Shown here one piece after another: positions 1 through 8,472 of a stretch of DNA of 64,000 nt (the first letter of the stretch is position 1; every line of letters starts with the position of its first letter). The stretch is taken from NCBI RefSeq assembly GCF_003018235.1, contig NZ_CP027437.1. The stretch is one strand, 5' to 3'. A model generated the notes under the pieces. The model made no database searches. It saw nothing but the letters and a program-made list of their open reading frames with translations, and was not told where the DNA came from. The translations under genes and the position numbers were made by a program. This DNA comes from Escherichia coli. Lineage in GTDB: Bacteria; Pseudomonadota; Gammaproteobacteria; Enterobacterales; Enterobacteriaceae.

Positions 1-6
1 GATATA

Positions 7-435
7 TTATTGGTGCTTCGATTTAAAAAACTCCCAATACTTTGGAGTATATCCTTTAAATGCTCTATGTTTCCCTTTTTCATAAGCTTTCAGGAAACAT
101 TCGTAAGCCTCATCGTTTTCACCTAATTCTAGACAAACACCCCCTAAGTTAATCAGTTCAGATGTGGAATATAGTGGAATTTCACACTTAAAAATTTCAA
201 CTGCCCAGTATTTTGCCTCATTATATTTTTTAAGGTCAAAATACACACCATAAATGCAACGAATCAACCATGCAGAAACTCCATCACCAAAAGAATATTT
301 CGGCTCAGGTAAACTATCCCACAAAGAAAGATAAAGTTTTAAAGCACCATAGGCATCTCCTTGATCTTCAAGAACGTTACCATCTTCGATTTGCTTTACT
401 ATGCTTTCTTCAAGCACTGGTCTGGTACTACTCAT
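7..435 (-). CDS. Putative immunity protein for the Rhs C-terminal toxin (142 aa)
   Basis: ORF begins 73 bp downstream of the rhs stop on the same strand; AT-rich like the toxin tip; helical, Tyr/Glu/Lys-rich sequence. Position and composition fit a cognate immunity gene; family not identified. Confidence 0.5.
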   Translation of the reverse strand: MSSTRPVLEESIVKQIEDGNVLEDQGDAYGALKLYLSLWDSLPEPKYSFGDGVSAWLIRCIYGVYFDLKKYNEAKYWAVEIFKCEIPLYSTSELINLGGVCLELGENDEAYECFLKAYEKGKHRAFKGYTPKYWEFFKSKHQ

Positions 436-508
436 TGCAAGCTACTCCATATGTATAAAATGAAAATTCACATAGTTCTAACTAGCTAATATATAACAAC
501 CGATTTCT

Positions 509-3500
509 CTATTTTATGATTGGCGGTACAATTGGAGGTGTCACTGGTGGTAAGTATACTTGACCAAGTTTAGCCCCAGCAGAACGGTTAAGAGAATAAT
601 GATCCAAATAATAATTTTTTGAATCCAGCATCCAATCCCTGACAGGTTTAGACTTCGGCCCCAAAAATCTACCAGTATTATTCCACCATGTAACGGCATC
701 TGTCTTATGAGACATATCTGCTTCACTTAATGGATGCCAGACACCTTCAGAATCTTTAAACTCCATCCGGGAACCTGTCCCTCTAATTTTTCCATCATTT
801 CTCATCCGAGCAATAACCTCACGGCCTGTTCGGCTATTCTTCCCTGGGGTTCTTCCTAAGAAATCACAACGTTTTGACAGCCCTAATGGGTCAATCCACC
901 CCAGCGGATTAGGCGCATAAGCATACAGGTTCAGCCCGCCCGCCAGCCCTATCGGGTCCGTTACCATGAACCGCCCGACATCCGGATCATAGTACCTGTG
1001 CAGATTGTAATGCAGCCCCGTTTCCCTGTCGAGGTACTGTCCCTGGTAGCGCAGGTTCTGCTCCACCCCGCCGTGGTCCTTCTCCTGTATCGTGTTACCC
1101 CAGACCTGATACCCCGTCTCCCACACGATTTTCCCGTCGCTGTCCGTCATCTCTTCCGGCGCGCCGTTCACATCCGTGTGAAAATACAGTATCCGGTTCG
1201 GGCCCTCTTTACCCACCTTATCCACCCGCGCCAGCGGTTCATAACTCCCCGGGTCGCTGTAGATATACAGGCTGCTTATTCCCTCCGGCCTGCTCTCCTG
1301 CGCCAGCCGCATTCCGTCCCATAAAAATGTCGTCCGGTTGTACGGTTTACCGTCAGGGCTGATGTGCTGTTTTTCCGTCCGCCTCCCCAGCGCATCGTAC
1401 ACATACCGGTACGTTCCCCGCGCTGTCGTCACTTCCACCATCCGGTGTTCCGCATCATAACGGTAACTCTGCGTGCCGCTCCGGCCCTCCTTTTCCACCG
1501 CACGGCCAAATTCGTCGTAACGGTAGTGCACACCACGGTAAGACATCAGCCGGTTGAACGGCACCACGCTGTTTTCTGCCGTGGCCCTTTCCCCCGCGCG
1601 CCGCGCCAGCAGGTTTCCCGCCGCGTCGTACTCCCAGCTCGCCAGATACCCCTCATCCTCCGAGCGGCACGCCGTGATGCGCCCCGTGGGGTCGTAGAAG
1701 TAATCCGTTTCCCCCCGCCGGCTGTGCCGCGTCTTCAGCAGTTCATCCTCGCCGCTGTAGCTGTACTGCCGGTCCGTGAACGTCTCCGGTACCACCCCGC
1801 GCATCCCGCTGTATGTCTCCCTGCGCTTCAGCCGCCCGGCGGGGTCATAAAGCTGCCGCGTGCTCAGTCGCCCCTGACTTCTGAGCACTTCCCGGTGCAG
1901 GGCGTCACGTGTGAACTCGCTGATGACCTCCCGGTCCAGATTTATCTGCTGGAGATGGCCGCTGCCGTAGTACAGATGACGCTGCGTTCTGCCGTCCGGA
2001 AAGGAGGTGGCTGTCCGGTTGCTGAGTTCATCGTACTGATGGGTCAGGACGCCCTGCGCCGTCTCCTCAGTCAGCATCCGCCCCAGTCTGTCGTAACTGA
2101 AGCGGATAATCTCCGGTGCGTCCATTTCCCCGGCATCCGACCGTCGGCGGCGGATTTCCAGTAGCTGGTCTGCCGCATCATGGACGTATTCCGTACGGCT
2201 ATCGGCTGTCTCCTTTGCCGTGAGCCGGCCCGCCGCATCACGTGCCAGCCGGTGGCGGATTTCACCGCCCCGGTCCCCTGTGAACACCACTTCCGTGACC
2301 GCGTTCAGCACGTTGTAACGGTACGTCTGGCGGCAGCCGTCCGGATTTATCTGCTCCGCCAGACGGTCCAGCACATCATGGCGGAACCGGTAGTTTTCTC
2401 CGTTCTCGTTCGTGAGCGTGACCAGACGCCCGTAAGCATCGTACCCGAACGCCGTCCTGCGCCCCGTCGCGTCTGTCCGGCTGCGCACCCGGCCCTGCCC
2501 GTCCCGCTGCCAGCGCGTTATCCTCCCCATCGGGCTGGTGTACTTCACGAGCCTGCCCGCCGCGTCCGACTGGTAATTCACCGTGCGGCCGTCCGCCAGT
2601 ATCACCTCCGTCAGGTGGCCGCTGTCGTCATACCCGTAGCGCGTGCTGTGGCTCTGCGCGTCTGTCATCCGTATCAGCCGCGTGCGTTCGTCGTAGAACC
2701 AGGCCGTCTGCGAGCCGGAACAGTCCGTGTGCCGCATGAGCTGTCCGTCTTCGTTCCACTGAAGGTATTTATTCCCCCCGCGCGCATCCGTTATCTGCAC
2801 CACCTGACCGTGGCGGTCATACTGATACCGGGTGTTCTGCTGCAGCGGGTCGGTCACCGCAAGAAGATTGCCGCGTTCATCGTACTCACAGCACCAGCTG
2901 TTCCCCGCCGCGTCCACCTCCGTTTCCGGCTGGTGCCACACCGGGTGCCACTGTGTCTGTGCCACCCGCCCCAGCGGGTCGTGCGTCTCCGTGATATGCC
3001 CCTGCCGGTCATACACATAGCGCCATTTGCCGCCCTGCGCATCGGTCATTCCCAGTAACAGCCGTTCTTCGTCGCTCCAGCGGAACGTCGTCACCTGCCC
3101 GGCTTCGTCCTGGTACGCCGTCACCTGGTTCTGCGCGTCCCACTGATGATAACGCGTGCGCCCCAGCCCGTCCGTCACGCACAGCCTGCGTGCCGCGAGG
3201 CTCCACGCCAGCCGGTACTGTTCACCGCTGTCCGTGTGGTGCCCCGTCACCCGCCACGCTGCGTCATCCGGGCCTTCATACCAGCCCCACTGGTAATAAT
3301 ACCCTTCGCCGCCCGGCTGGCGGTGCAGGGTCATGCAGTGGTTTTCGTCGTAAGCAAACTCGCGCAGCAGGTGCCCCGTGCTGTCGTACACGCCGTTCAG
3401 GTCGCCGGCCTCGTCATAGCGGTAACGACGCAGCAGTAAAGGAGCCGTCTCAGGGAAATGCTGATAAATCTGTGTCACCCGCCGGGGATGCGCCGCCAGT

Positions 3501-5188
3501 TCATAATGCAGACGGATGCACGGACGCTGCTGTTCACCGCTGATTTGCGTGATGCGCCCCAGCTCGTCGTAGTACAGATTCAGACAGTTGCTGTTGCGGT
3601 CGCCCAGCATTTTCAGCCGCTGGTGCTGCGGGTGATGCGGGTCGGCTTCAAACAGAAAAAACTGCCCGTCATCGCTGCTGATAAGCCAGTGCCCCTGCTC
3701 ACCCCGCCGTACTGCCAGTCCTTCGCCGGGGCTGTAAAACCCGCTCCCCGGCAGCACAGCCTCCATATCCAGGCGTCGTCCCATGCCCGACACAAAGGTC
3801 ATACAGTTTTCGTCAGCAGTACCCGGCGTGCGCACGAGGCTGACTTCATACATCACGCTCCAGCCCTGCCCGAACATCCCTTCCGTGCGGTCGTCACGAC
3901 TGCTGTACACGCGCTGCCAGTCCAGCGGAAAGTGGCCCGGCAGACTGAAGTCAAAATCATCGTCATCGGCCAGATATTTGGCTCCGGTGGCGGCATTGAC
4001 CGGATGCGGAAGGGCACTGATGGCCTTCTGCGTCATCACCCCCATCCCGACACTGGCAGCAAAACAGGCGATTTTAGAAAGCATTTTGCCCGGGCGAAGA
4101 AACATCAGCGCCACGGTTGCCACCAGGGTTATCTGCGACCTGCCGCTTCTGATATCCCTGACCACCAGTAACGGACCGCCAATGCGGACATCCGGTGACA
4201 CAAACGCCCCGTTCCCCGGCTCATTCACCACCCTGGCCTCGCAGGTGCAGCGTGCCCCGCTGCGTGCCGCCGGCTGGCTGTTGATACGCACATCCCGCGC
4301 GCCTTCCGCGATATATTCCGCTGCGGGCGGTTCATCATCGCCTTTGAACAGATTACTGATGCTGCCAATAACCGCATTCACTCCCTGAAAGGCGGTTTCC
4401 AGCATACCGCCCGGACTCAGCAGGTTAAGGGCCGTTCCCAGGGGGTCATCCAGAAAGGCGGCTTTTTTTTGTGCGAGAAACTGCGTCAGTGAGGAGGGAT
4501 GTTTATGGCAGTCGATTTTATCGTCAGGGGTCGGGGTGGAGCCCGGGGCCGCACTGGCCACGGTGGGCTGCCATAGTTCCGACACAAAATGTGTCACGCC
4601 ATCCACCATTTCAGAACGCCCTTCTTCCGTACTGAGCTGGTCATGCAGCGCCCGGGACATCAGCACAGGCCCTGTCACCGGGTTAACCGCCAGGGCTATG
4701 GCCCCCGCCATTTCCAGATATTCCCCGGCCACATCCAGGAACGTTCTGGCGTCCTCCTGACGCTGCGCTTCTTCCTGTTCCGCCTTCGCCTGCGCCTCCT
4801 GCGCCTCAATGTCCTGCCGCGATGCCGCAGTCGCCGCGGCCCGCGCGGCAGGTTTGCTGTTGATCCATGTGTCGCCAGAGCCGGTGAGGATGTAACCTTC
4901 AATCTGAGGCGGGAAAAGCATATTTGCGAGGTCTGAACAGACTTCGCTGACCTTTTCTGTCACGCCGGTGTACACCATCGCCACACCCGCCACAAAACCG
5001 GTCAGCACGACGGCCGTGCACCCCATAGTGATCCCCGCTGACGTCGCCAGTAACGAGGTTGTGCCGACAATGAGGGCATCAATAACGACATTTGCGGCCA
5101 CCTCCAGCACCGCCCCCAGCACATCTGCCATAAACGACGTATGCAGCAGGGCATCACCCTGCCTTGCCGCCCAGAATGCCTCTTCCAT
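509..5188 (-). CDS. Rhs-family polymorphic toxin (1559 aa): prePAAR/PAAR N-terminus, YD-repeat shell, DPLGL boundary, variable 122-aa C-terminal tip
   Basis: ATG at 5188. N-terminus carries AARQGDALLH (prePAAR consensus AARxxDxxxH), hydrophobic stretches at residues ~23-75, and PAAR tetrapeptides at residues 113-116 and 306-309. Many YD repeats (YRYDEAGDL, YQYDRHGQ, YGYDDSGHL). Core ends PNPLGWIDPLGL; the last 122 aa (nt 512-877) are AT-rich. Confidence 0.9.
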   Translation of the reverse strand: MEEAFWAARQGDALLHTSFMADVLGAVLEVAANVVIDALIVGTTSLLATSAGITMGCTAVVLTGFVAGVAMVYTGVTEKVSEVCSDLANMLFPPQIEGYILTGSGDTWINSKPAARAAATAASRQDIEAQEAQAKAEQEEAQRQEDARTFLDVAGEYLEMAGAIALAVNPVTGPVLMSRALHDQLSTEEGRSEMVDGVTHFVSELWQPTVASAAPGSTPTPDDKIDCHKHPSSLTQFLAQKKAAFLDDPLGTALNLLSPGGMLETAFQGVNAVIGSISNLFKGDDEPPAAEYIAEGARDVRINSQPAARSGARCTCEARVVNEPGNGAFVSPDVRIGGPLLVVRDIRSGRSQITLVATVALMFLRPGKMLSKIACFAASVGMGVMTQKAISALPHPVNAATGAKYLADDDDFDFSLPGHFPLDWQRVYSSRDDRTEGMFGQGWSVMYEVSLVRTPGTADENCMTFVSGMGRRLDMEAVLPGSGFYSPGEGLAVRRGEQGHWLISSDDGQFFLFEADPHHPQHQRLKMLGDRNSNCLNLYYDELGRITQISGEQQRPCIRLHYELAAHPRRVTQIYQHFPETAPLLLRRYRYDEAGDLNGVYDSTGHLLREFAYDENHCMTLHRQPGGEGYYYQWGWYEGPDDAAWRVTGHHTDSGEQYRLAWSLAARRLCVTDGLGRTRYHQWDAQNQVTAYQDEAGQVTTFRWSDEERLLLGMTDAQGGKWRYVYDRQGHITETHDPLGRVAQTQWHPVWHQPETEVDAAGNSWCCEYDERGNLLAVTDPLQQNTRYQYDRHGQVVQITDARGGNKYLQWNEDGQLMRHTDCSGSQTAWFYDERTRLIRMTDAQSHSTRYGYDDSGHLTEVILADGRTVNYQSDAAGRLVKYTSPMGRITRWQRDGQGRVRSRTDATGRRTAFGYDAYGRLVTLTNENGENYRFRHDVLDRLAEQINPDGCRQTYRYNVLNAVTEVVFTGDRGGEIRHRLARDAAGRLTAKETADSRTEYVHDAADQLLEIRRRRSDAGEMDAPEIIRFSYDRLGRMLTEETAQGVLTHQYDELSNRTATSFPDGRTQRHLYYGSGHLQQINLDREVISEFTRDALHREVLRSQGRLSTRQLYDPAGRLKRRETYSGMRGVVPETFTDRQYSYSGEDELLKTRHSRRGETDYFYDPTGRITACRSEDEGYLASWEYDAAGNLLARRAGERATAENSVVPFNRLMSYRGVHYRYDEFGRAVEKEGRSGTQSYRYDAEHRMVEVTTARGTYRYVYDALGRRTEKQHISPDGKPYNRTTFLWDGMRLAQESRPEGISSLYIYSDPGSYEPLARVDKVGKEGPNRILYFHTDVNGAPEEMTDSDGKIVWETGYQVWGNTIQEKDHGGVEQNLRYQGQYLDRETGLHYNLHRYYDPDVGRFMVTDPIGLAGGLNLYAYAPNPLGWIDPLGLSKRCDFLGRTPGKNSRTGREVIARMRNDGKIRGTGSRMEFKDSEGVWHPLSEADMSHKTDAVTWWNNTGRFLGPKSKPVRDWMLDSKNYYLDHYSLNRSAGAKLGQVYLPPVTPPIVPPIIK

Positions 5189-5206
5189 GTCCCGTTCCCT
5201 GTGTGA

Positions 5207-5436
5207 TTAATTCGTCCCGGCTTCCTGCCGCATCCTGAAGCGCAGATTCTTTTTAATTTCAGCCCAGCGCGTCATATCTGCCGGGGTCAGCGGTGTGGTT
5301 CTGGCGTAGGTGAAGGCCATCATGACCCGCTCACCCGGCAATACAAATGCCACCTGACACTGGTACACCTGCTCGTTACCCCGGAGAAACTGGCTCTGTA
5401 TTTGCAAACCGCCTCATTGAGATAATATTCCGTCAT
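5207..5436 (-). pseudogene. Disrupted short ORFs immediately upstream of rhs; possible remnant of an effector-associated chaperone gene
   Basis: A 66-aa ORF (5207-5407, TTG start) ends 19 bp before the rhs start. An ATG at 5436 with an upstream AGGA opens a different frame that stops at 5320. No intact ORF of chaperone size. Assignment is positional inference only. Confidence 0.2.
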
Positions 5437-6190
5437 AATAGAAGTCGTCCTTTTTAATAAATGAATTATTTATTGACAGGTTCTGTTTTTTAATCATGAA
5501 TGTAATGTCTATCACCGCTTTACAGCACTCTTTATCTTTCAAGCGGTAATCACTAATAACATTAAGCAATTACCCATATTTACAATGACCGGAACTGATA
5601 TGCCGTTATGTATTTAACAATCCCAACATATTCACCATACCAATAAAATCACGAGTAACAAACACGCTACCGCCTCCATATAAAAAATGGACAGCTTATA
5701 AAATTGCATCTTGCATAGAAAGGGCTGAGATATCGAGTGTATTTTAATTATCAACTATAAATCTTGAATATTTTCATTAACAGAAACACATCTTATCCCA
5801 TTAGATATGTTAACAATCAATTATTCTTAACATATCACTAAAGTATATATTACTCTCTTTACTATCTGTTTTTATTGCGGTAGCGATATTAATAGCAAAA
5901 TTCGGAATTTATTTAGATGCTGGAATAAGAAAAAATGATGACGGCTTTCTTACCTTACCCTGAAGTTTCAGGAAAGTGTGTAAGGAAGGATGCAACCTAA
6001 CTGGAGATTTCTGAGGATCTAGTTGCTTAGAGCGACAATGAAGGTGAACGCATCCAGAGTAGTCCTATGAAAGGATACTATTGAAAATTGATGCTAAAAC
6101 AGTGATTAAATGAACAACACCATGGAACCCGTTGATTCAAAACGCCTAAACCAGCCCCCTGATACGAGGCTGGCTTAAACGCGCAGGCAA

Positions 6191-6397
6191 TCAGTAAAAA
6201 TCACCAGTTGCCTTTTCTGCCTGATCCATCCACACCGGTTTCTCGCTGGTTTTCGACCAGACGCGGTGCAGGTAGCTGTAAAAGCGGGCGCGGTCTTTCC
6301 AGAAAAGCATGAAAGGCAGCGCCAGAACGCCCGCTGCAACCGCATAAGTACGGCGTAAAAAGATAAGCCATGCAGGATATTCTCTGTAGAGTTCCAT
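6191..6397 (-). CDS. ybfA: YbfA, small DUF2517 protein (68 aa)
   Basis: 68-aa translation [16 protein letters not shown]... matches recalled K-12 YbfA; sits between rhs and kdpF as in K-12. Confidence 0.8.
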
Positions 6398-6606
6398 ACT
6401 TTTCTCCCCCTTTTGTATCTACCCGGTGAATGGCACCGGAAAAATGAATTTGTTTATCTGATGAAAATAGTACCGCCTTTTGTGTAATTTTACTACTCAT
6501 CCGACCACTTATTTTTGCTTATTGATGGTTTATTTACATTCATACCGTAATTAAGTTACACAAAGGTTAAATTAATACTAAACATTAGTTAAATCATGGC
6601 TTTTGC

Positions 6607-6675
6607 CATTTTTATACTTTTTTTACACCCCGCCCGCAGATTTTTGCGAAATCTTTGCAGCCAGAATTCTACCCT
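6607..6675 (+). promoter_or_regulatory. kdpFABC promoter region with KdpE-binding direct repeat
   Basis: T-rich direct repeat TTTTTATACTTTTTTTACACC about 80 bp upstream of kdpF, followed by TTGCGA as a -35 candidate. Matches the recalled KdpE box; exact -10 uncertain. Confidence 0.5.
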
Positions 6676-6709
6676 TCCGGTATCACTTTTAGGCCACTGG
6701 AGGTGCACT

Positions 6710-6799
6710 GTGAGTGCAGGCGTGATAGCCGGCGTGTTGCTGGTGTTTTTATTACTGGGTTATCTGGTTTATGCCCTGATCAATGCGGAGGCGTTCTGA
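6710..6799 (+). CDS. kdpF: KdpF, K+-ATPase small subunit (29 aa)
   Basis: GTG start; translation [29 protein letters not shown]; stop overlaps the kdpA ATG. Below the ORF-track size cut-off. Confidence 0.85.
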
Positions 6800-8472
6800 T
6801 GGCTGCGCAAGGGTTCTTACTGATCGCCACGTTTTTACTGGTGTTAATGGTGCTGGCACGTCCTTTAGGCAGCGGGCTGGCGCGGCTGATTAACGACATA
6901 CCTCTTCCCGGTACAGCGGGCGTTGAACGTATACTCTTTCGTTTACCTGGCGTCTCTGACAGTGAGATGAACTGGAAGCAGTATCTCTGTGCCATTCTCG
7001 GCCTGAACATGCTGGGGCTGGCGGTGCTGTTTTTTATGTTGCTCGGTCAGCACTATCTGCCGCTTAATCCACAGCAGTTGCCAGGGCTGTCGTGGGATCT
7101 GGCGCTGAATACCGCCGTCAGCTTTGTCACCAATACCAACTGGCAATCTTATAGCGGTGAAACCACGTTGAGCTATTTCAGCCAGATGGCGGGCTTAACG
7201 GTACAAAACTTTCTTTCTGCCGCCAGCGGGATTGCGGTGATTTTTGCCCTCATTCGTGCGTTTACCCGCCAGAGCATGAGCACACTCGGGAATGCCTGGG
7301 TCGATCTGTTACGTATCACGTTATGGGTGCTAGTCCCTGTGGCGTTGTTGATCGCACTGTTTTTTATTCAACAAGGTGCACTGCAAAACTTTCTGCCCTA
7401 TCAGGCGGTGAATACCGTTGAAGGAGCGAAACAGCTGTTACCCATGGGTCCGGTGGCTTCTCAGGAAGCGATAAAGATGCTCGGCACTAACGGCGGTGGC
7501 TTCTTTAATGCCAACTCGTCGCATCCGTTTGAAAACCCAACCGCACTGACCAACTTCGTGCAGATGCTGACGATCTTCTTGATCCCAACGGCACTGTGCT
7601 TTGCCTTTGGCGAAGTGGCGGGCGATCGCCGTCAGGGGCGCATGTTGCTGTGGGCGATGTCAGTGATTTTTGTCATCTGCGTAGGCGTGGTGATGTGGGC
7701 AGAAGTTCAGGGTAATCCTCATCTGCTGGCGCTGGGTGCGGACAGCAGCATCAATATGGAAGGTAAAGAGAGCCGTTTCGGCGTGCTGGTCAGTAGCCTG
7801 TTTGCGGTCGTGACTACGGCGGCTTCCTGTGGCGCGGTGATTGCGATGCATGATTCGTTTACCGCTCTCGGTGGCATGGTGCCGATGTGGCTGATGCAAA
7901 TTGGTGAAGTGGTATTCGGCGGTGTCGGTTCTGGTCTTTACGGCATGATGCTGTTTGTTCTGCTGGCGGTGTTTATTGCCGGGCTGATGATTGGTCGTAC
8001 ACCGGAATATCTGGGTAAAAAAATCGACGTACGTGAGATGAAACTGACCGCGCTGGCGATTCTGGTCACCCCGACGCTGGTGCTGATGGGCGCGGCGCTG
8101 GCAATGATGACCGACGCCGGACGTAGCGCCATGCTCAACCCTGGCCCGCATGGTTTTAGCGAAGTGCTGTACGCCGTGTCATCCGCCGCTAACAACAACG
8201 GCAGCGCCTTTGCCGGATTAAGCGCCAACTCTCCGTTCTGGAACTGTTTACTGGCGTTCTGCATGTTTGTCGGTCGCTTCGGGGTGATTATCCCGGTGAT
8301 GGCAATTGCCGGTTCGCTGGTGAGTAAAAAGAGCCAACCCGCCAGCTCCGGCACATTGCCAACGCACGGCCCGCTGTTTGTTGGCCTGTTAATCGGCACC
8401 GTGTTGCTGGTTGGCGCACTGACCTTTATCCCTGCCCTGGCGCTTGGTCCGGTGGCGGAATATCTCTCCTGA
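6799..8472 (+). CDS. kdpA: KdpA, K+-transporting ATPase potassium-binding subunit (557 aa)
   Basis: Translation from [12 protein letters not shown]... matches KdpA; ATG overlaps the kdpF stop (ATGA). The ORF-track N-terminal extension from 6655 is rejected. Confidence 0.95.

Follow-up and report, generated by a model that had tools for sequence, protein, structure and literature searches.

The window analysed here, a stretch of 64,000 nucleotides of Escherichia coli (RefSeq assembly GCF_003018235.1, contig NZ_CP027437.1), contains an rhs gene on the minus strand at positions 509-5188 which very probably codes for a complete Rhs effector of the class I prePAAR kind, belonging to a type VI secretion system (T6SS), and derives, as the copy located between ybfA and ybgA, from a decayed eag-rhs module. 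All genes and protein segments given below with window coordinates, as far as ybfA, also lie on the minus strand. The gene is intact, with an uninterrupted 4.7-kb open reading frame (ORF) of 1559 amino acids in which every motif is preserved. Class I prePAAR effectors were defined by Ahmad et al. 2020 (PMC7773334), in a survey that includes Escherichia, Shigella and Salmonella, as Rhs proteins that carry the motif AARxxDxxxH and one transmembrane domain (TMD) region N-terminal to PAAR, and that depend on Eag. The N-terminal motif, a single TMD region, a PAAR domain completed by prePAAR, and a large Rhs part followed by a C-terminal toxin were all found in the window protein. Moreover, its closest solved structure by sequence was RhsA of Pseudomonas protegens (PDB 7q97; E 7.6e-54); RhsA has been characterised as a class I prePAAR effector and self-cleaves between H304 and P305. 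An earlier note on this DNA had proposed the architecture of a VgrG- and Eag-dependent T6SS effector, and the class definition, the RhsA match and the occurrence of the same N-terminus beside vgrG and a DcrB-related gene (described below) bear this proposal out.

Architecture of the window protein

The N-terminus of the Rhs product, MEEAFWAARQGDALLH, contains an exact AARxxDxxxH at residues 7-16 (AARQGDALLH; 5141-5170), the single match in the whole 1559-residue protein. Residues A7, A8, R9, D12 and H16 were nearly invariant in the homologue alignment, and the motif was present in 52 of the 65 relatives of a deeper alignment; it is therefore not a chance match. The motif is followed by the only hydrophobic region of the protein, at residues 18-77 (4958-5137), where Kyte-Doolittle values over 19-residue windows reached at least 1.6; this single TMD region was modelled as helices (residues 19-91). 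Both features, together with two PAAR tetrapeptides at residues 113-116 (INSKPAAR) and 306-309 (INSQPAAR), had been pointed out in the earlier note and were recovered as described there.

The two tetrapeptides were assigned to one split PAAR domain. The PAAR profile search suggested in the earlier note gave a match to Pfam PF05488 (E 1.8e-5), in which residues 97-118 correspond to model positions 8-29 and residues 291-321 to positions 39-69, that is, to complementary halves of one model. Segment a (residues 94-118; 4835-4909), with the first tetrapeptide, was modelled as beta-strands at residues 95-120, and is followed by a first helical insertion (residues 119-204; 4577-4834; modelled helices at 124-206). 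The middle segment, WQPTVA...DKIDCHKHP (residues 205-232; 4493-4576; modelled strands at 209-227), was conserved in every relative of the homologue alignment, with P208, V210, D223, I225, C227 and H230 nearly invariant, and contains C227 and H230 as putative zinc ligands. A second helical insertion (residues 233-288; 4325-4492; modelled helices at 234-282) separates it from segment b (residues 289-346; 4151-4324), which holds the second tetrapeptide and C316. The near invariance of H16, C227, H230 and C316 fits the published scheme, according to which the PAAR part gives three zinc ligands and prePAAR gives one.

Across the 65 relatives, the insertion after the first PAAR motif varied from 2 to 92 residues (87 in the window protein), while the insertion after CxKHP measured 0-7 residues in most relatives, 21-39 in five, and 51-57 in the Escherichia/Salmonella group only. 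An AlphaFold model based on a 13-sequence alignment was discarded (predicted local distance difference test, pLDDT, 38.7); with 65 sequences, values of 79.3 for pLDDT and 0.74 for the predicted template modelling score (pTM) were obtained, with beta-strands in the four PAAR pieces and a helical TMD and helical insertions. A Foldseek search of the PDB gave no more than four matches, all weak (E 1.8-9.6), of which the best three were to PAAR proteins and covered half of the domain; a local method cannot span the insertions. The complementary Pfam halves, the conserved middle segment, the variable insertions and the model together point to a single canonical cone, predicted to be formed by the prePAAR strand, segment a, the middle segment and segment b, out of which the TMD and the two helical insertions loop. 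That each tetrapeptide, the two being 190 residues apart, marks a spike-capping PAAR domain of its own is very improbable, and two separate domains were rejected in view of the complementary Pfam halves and the insertion lengths in relatives. The "two PAAR motifs" of the earlier note thus hold as tetrapeptides, but not as domains. As to the insertions (residues 119-204 and 233-288), it seems unlikely, if conceivable, that they form a structured accessory module beyond a passive linker; such a module may provide an extra contact with VgrG or Eag, or act as a membrane-active element at entry.

Downstream of the PAAR domain, a linker with amphipathic helices (residues 347-394; 4001-4150, including H395 and P396) was aligned to the RhsA region that ends at H304/P305. 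The sequence LPH395/P396VNAATGAK aligns at the motif level with the RhsA autocleavage site, and cleavage is predicted at this point. The Rhs cage was recognised by DUF6531 (E 2e-17), the Rhs-associated core TIGR03696 (E 4.8e-29) and 14 YDxxG repeats, and ends at PLGWIDPLGL (residues 1428-1437; 878-907), which has the position of the PxxxxDPxGL motif, with DPLGL at residues 1433-1437, and is the putative C-terminal autoproteolysis motif and core/tip boundary. The guanine-cytosine (GC) content was 0.58-0.67 over positions 900-5400 against 0.33-0.43 over positions 1-900, in agreement with the GC-rich core and AT-rich tip reported previously. An exact look-up of the 1559-residue protein found no record, and PADLOC gave no match; NCBIfam gave none for the tip, the immunity ORF or the eag remnant. 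A promoter and terminator scan of positions 1-6600 yielded 8 promoters, compared with 5.0 ± 2.5 in shuffled sequences, and no terminators; being no better than the shuffles, the promoter result is uninformative on expression.

The order of elements (prePAAR, TMD, split PAAR, linker, HP site, Rhs cage, DPxGL and toxin) matches that of RhsA from P. protegens Pf-5, which works with the chaperone EagR1 and the spike VgrG1. RhsA differs in its toxin tip, in having its chaperone encoded in cis, and in having 304 residues before the cleavage site compared with 395 in the window protein, whose part is longer because its PAAR insertions are longer. In Photorhabdus Tre23 (7pq5), which aligned at the prePAAR motif, the PAAR halves are contiguous. 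Within E. coli, the nearest systems are the VgrG-EagR-Rhs islands, exemplified by strain c1-17 at pptA-ansP, whose Rhs protein is 97-98% identical to the window protein at the N-terminus and 95% in the core, and whose eag is 95-98% identical to the eag remnant of the window; unlike the c1-17 island, the window copy is situated between ybfA and ybgA, lacks vgrG, retains eag only in deleted form, and ends in a different tip. E. coli islands of this kind are described in the literature as those of the VgrG_O1/EagR-dependent PAAR-Rhs effectors of Ma et al. 2017, and the vgrG of the c1-17 island may be of the VgrG_O1 type. Rhs proteins of Salmonella enterica of the kind found in SPI-6 were 60% identical along the entire N-terminal 400 residues and contain both PAAR insertions; among them may be Rhs1, the effector crystallised with SciW (PDB 6xrr). 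A search of PDB sequences with the N-terminal 83 residues gave no match, so that the window protein was not linked directly to the N-terminus of crystallised Rhs1. The N-terminal 400 residues were also 98-100% identical to entries from E. coli and Shigella flexneri. In the latter species SF0266/SF0267 is a class I effector whose Eag (SF3490) sits at a distant locus; the cluster look-up did not tie the S. flexneri matches to SF0266.

Toxin tip and probable immunity gene

The C-terminal 122 residues (1438-1559; 512-877) are predicted to be a divergent GH-E/HNH-EndoVII-like nuclease, on the basis of the names of homologues and of PF14410 matches in relatives. Homologues of the tip at 80-90% identity were found in rhs fragments of Salmonella, Proteus and Pectobacterium, and more distant relatives in Bacillus, Bacteroidetes and Actinobacteria; several of these go by the name of GH-E or HNH/EndoVII nuclease in their source records. 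PF14410 was matched by 4 of the 20 aligned tip relatives at E ≤ 0.001 and by 10 of the 20 at E ≤ 0.1, and residues H57, D60, W65, N66, N88 and R98 of the tip were invariant. The ORF that follows (7-435), of 142 amino acids and with a faint resemblance to tetratricopeptide repeats, is the probable cognate immunity gene: its product is 62% identical to that of the gene directly after an 81%-identical toxin in Salmonella, where the partnership is thus conserved. The exact 142-residue protein was found on many contigs, and adjoins this tip in contigs L013-L016, of which L016 (GCA_022441185.1) is 99.94% identical to window positions 1-3535 and continues into ybgA-phr.

Identity to all other copies in complete E. 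coli genomes stops at about 887-902, exactly at the DPxGL boundary, and a blastn search of window positions 1-900 against complete E. coli genomes gave no match. The tip/immunity pair was absent from the 5,426 complete RefSeq E. coli genomes, and present in draft assemblies and in Salmonella. In L013 (CP177202.1), positions 6096-8435 correspond to window positions 1-2341 (rhs 3' core, tip and immunity gene) at 98.9% identity, as an orphan copy; an intact vgrG-eag-rhs(EndoU) gene lies upstream of it. Such a copy is in keeping with the way in which Rhs tips are usually replaced, by recombination with orphan copies, and the arrangement in L013 is a likely donor configuration for such a replacement. 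In addition, in rhs arrays (L001, L002, L004, L012 and L013), almost every rhs-immunity unit was directly followed by a SymE-family type I toxin gene on the opposite strand.

Decay of the locus and possible supply of partner genes

Neither vgrG nor an intact eag flanks the rhs gene of the window, as the earlier note had observed; intact partner genes are indeed absent, but they are not simply lacking, since a deleted eag and a 3' stub of vgrG remain. The 3' remnant of eag (DcrB/DUF1795; 5207-5406) covers approximately residues 84-150, with 95.5% identity by tblastn to residues 84-150 of Eag, and the equivalent gene is annotated by the Prokaryotic Genome Annotation Pipeline (PGAP) as a partial DcrB-related pseudogene. 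The adjacent segment (5414-5539; 77% identical to c1-17 by blastn) comprises a diverged vgrG 3' stub, the intergenic region, and the first 10 or so codons of eag (ATG at 5436). Approximately 226 bp internal to eag are deleted between 5414 and 5406, leaving the two parts of eag out of frame, and the junction is gapless against strain D6; vgrG is reduced to about 35 codons. The complete DcrB domain (PF08786, approximately residues 18-135 of 150) is not retained at the window locus, while the intact Eag orthologue is a clear DcrB/DUF1795 member (Pfam DcrB, E 2.2e-18). Beyond the stub lies an AT-rich spacer (5540-6190, not assigned to either strand; GC 0.30-0.37), which is peculiar to rhs loci of this type next to ybfA, and then ybfA (6191-6397), the conserved flank common to the K-12 rhsC locus. 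The spacer, about 650 bp from ybfA to the vgrG stub, was 86% identical to that of the D6 locus and absent from K-12.

In approximately 170-190 of the 5,426 complete genomes of E. coli, this rhs type adjoins ybfA. At pptA-ansP, the position of rhsE in K-12, the same N-terminus occurs at 97-98% identity, directly after vgrG and a gene for a 150-residue "DcrB-related" protein, and the identity of the window to this pptA-ansP module starts inside eag. The eag remnant and the vgrG stub mark the window locus as a decayed copy of the standard module. Moreover, the kdp locus retains an intact eag in D6 and about 48 further genomes, where it is accompanied by the same AT-rich spacer and vgrG is absent; considered with the deletion, these loci indicate that the window copy is a deletion derivative of an eag-rhs module from which vgrG had mostly been lost earlier.

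Two alleles of the TMD were distinguished. Over residues 1-90 (4919-5188), the type shared by the window, c1-17 and D6 was 54% identical to the type of Res13 (pptA-ansP) and ETEC1738 (kdp), while residues 91-396 remained approximately 99% identical and the partner Eag proteins at least 97%. This difference suggests that recombination was restricted to the TMD and that a single chaperone serves both alleles. A further arrangement was seen in GCA_017767305.1 (contig DADTAP010000002.1, 1-16429), where a pqqU-yncE-ansP flank is joined via rhs to an immunity gene-ybgA-phr flank; the joining of the pptA-ansP and kdp flanks implies that the chromosome was rearranged on a large scale between these rhs loci.

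With eag deleted and vgrG reduced to a stub, spike, chaperone and T6SS would all have to be encoded elsewhere for the window protein to be exported. VgrG/EagR-dependent delivery of E. coli PAAR-Rhs effectors has been described in the literature, and a Shigella class I effector was co-purified with a distantly encoded Eag (SF0266/SF3490; Ahmad et al. 2020, PMC7773334). Composite queries were used, in which genomes with this locus were ranked first and additional matches were then counted. A second, intact eag was present elsewhere in 9 of the 11 deleted-eag genomes among the matches listed, and in one deleted-eag genome it lies in a complete vgrG-eag-rhs-immunity module. Genes tssBC of the T6SS type associated with the module were detected in 7 of the 60 best-matching genomes with this locus, a search limited to that one type and to megablast, so that more divergent T6SS types may be present and absence is no proof against any T6SS. 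The three genomes closest to the window are among these seven, and have both a trans-encoded eag and tssBC. A complete T6SS cluster with tae4/tai4 was found at aspV in strain ETEC1721. Spike, chaperone and T6SS are thus available in trans in only some related genomes, and export via borrowed components is plausible on these genomic grounds. With regard to the chromosomal background, the core genes at window positions 14000-63999 had a best identity of 98.8-99.3% over 25 kb among the 5,426 complete genomes, so that the lineage of the window is either missing from these or a Shigella or draft-only one.

Several observations weigh against the reading of the gene as a T6SS effector. The 64-kb window contains no T6SS gene, and beyond kdp carries core genes only (speF, pgm, glnS, leuS, mrdA and others). 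The Pfam prePAAR_I model matched the window protein weakly (E 1.9), as did the E. coli Eag the crystallised SciW (E 1e-3). The tip itself had no direct match in Pfam or NCBIfam. Finally, 53 of the 60 best-matching genomes were without tssBC of the associated type by megablast, and the aspV site of one of them, Res13-Lact-PER13-34 (NZ_CP062824.1, 1566-4445) holds only tssA/ImpA, a 97-residue RHS fragment and an ISAs1 transposase; this strain still keeps a full vgrG-eag-rhs module elsewhere.

The lack of tssBC in those 53 genomes indicates that in many hosts the effector may not be exportable, and it is likely stranded in many of them. It is possible, though on balance doubtful, that the protein is what it appears to be but that export has been lost in its host, the locus being kept as a reservoir for toxin/immunity recombination or for the protection given by its immunity gene. 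The internal deletion of eag, the vgrG stub, the remnant T6SS at aspV in Res13-Lact-PER13-34, and at least two related genomes without a second eag copy speak for such a loss, as do the sharing of the tip with an orphan copy elsewhere and the recombination between two rhs loci. However, the fully open ORF with all its motifs, the presence of trans-encoded eag and tssBC in the three closest genomes, and the possible presence of T6SS types too divergent for megablast argue in favour of a complete effector that may still be exported with components supplied in trans.

By analogy with P. protegens RhsA, Salmonella Rhs1 and the E. coli VgrG-EagR-Rhs islands, the Eag chaperone would shield the TMD, the PAAR cone would cap the VgrG spike, and the Rhs cage would self-cleave at H395/P396 and after DPLGL1437. 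The T6SS would then fire the complex into a neighbouring cell, where the 122-residue GH-E/HNH-like nuclease tip would be released, while the 142-residue downstream protein would protect the producer. The window copy stands at the ybfA-ybgA rhs site where K-12 has the RhsC type, and descends from an eag-rhs module through the loss of about 226 bp of eag and the reduction of vgrG to a stub; any export would presumably draw on VgrG, Eag and T6SS core genes from other parts of the genome.

Contrast with K-12 RhsC and significance

The window protein and K-12 RhsC share the chromosomal site between ybfA and ybgA and the organisation of an Rhs cage with DPxGL. They differ at the N-terminus, which in RhsC is short and PAAR-only (MSGKPAARQGD...), without TMD or AARxxDxxxH. 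The K-12 protein begins MSGKPAARQGDMTQYGG and has no hydrophobic segment, so that both points made in the earlier note proved correct; in the alignment it had called for, RhsC matched the window protein from residue 373 onward only, at 29% identity, and the N-terminus was not common to the two. The RhsC-type N-terminus and core that characterise the K-12 RhsC lineage were not found in the window protein. The identity of the site with that of K-12 rhsC and the lack of T6SS genes nearby might suggest a T6SS-independent Rhs of the K-12 RhsA-D kind with a hydrophobic leader, for instance for Sec or membrane targeting, but this is hardly credible given the low identity to RhsC, an N-terminus that matches vgrG-eag-linked genes, the conserved prePAAR residues, and a hydrophobic region placed between two pieces of the PAAR fold.

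Read as a class I prePAAR effector, the window gene is intact and adds an ordinary member to a family of contact-killing toxins that is already well described; it leaves the current understanding of T6SS effectors unchanged and shows no departure from known T6SS biology. An accessory module formed by the lineage-specific PAAR insertions, combined with two interchangeable TMD alleles served by one nearly invariant Eag, would, if true, point to a level of specificity in spike loading not yet described for enterobacterial Rhs effectors. The decayed eag/vgrG context provides a clear example of an effector that either borrows its loading factors or is stranded, and with the tip the repertoire of E. 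coli gains a further GH-E-like nuclease/immunity pair. Finally, either of two Rhs lineages unrelated to each other may occupy the rhs site between ybfA and ybgA, and an "RhsC" annotation carried over from K-12 would be wrong at the window locus.

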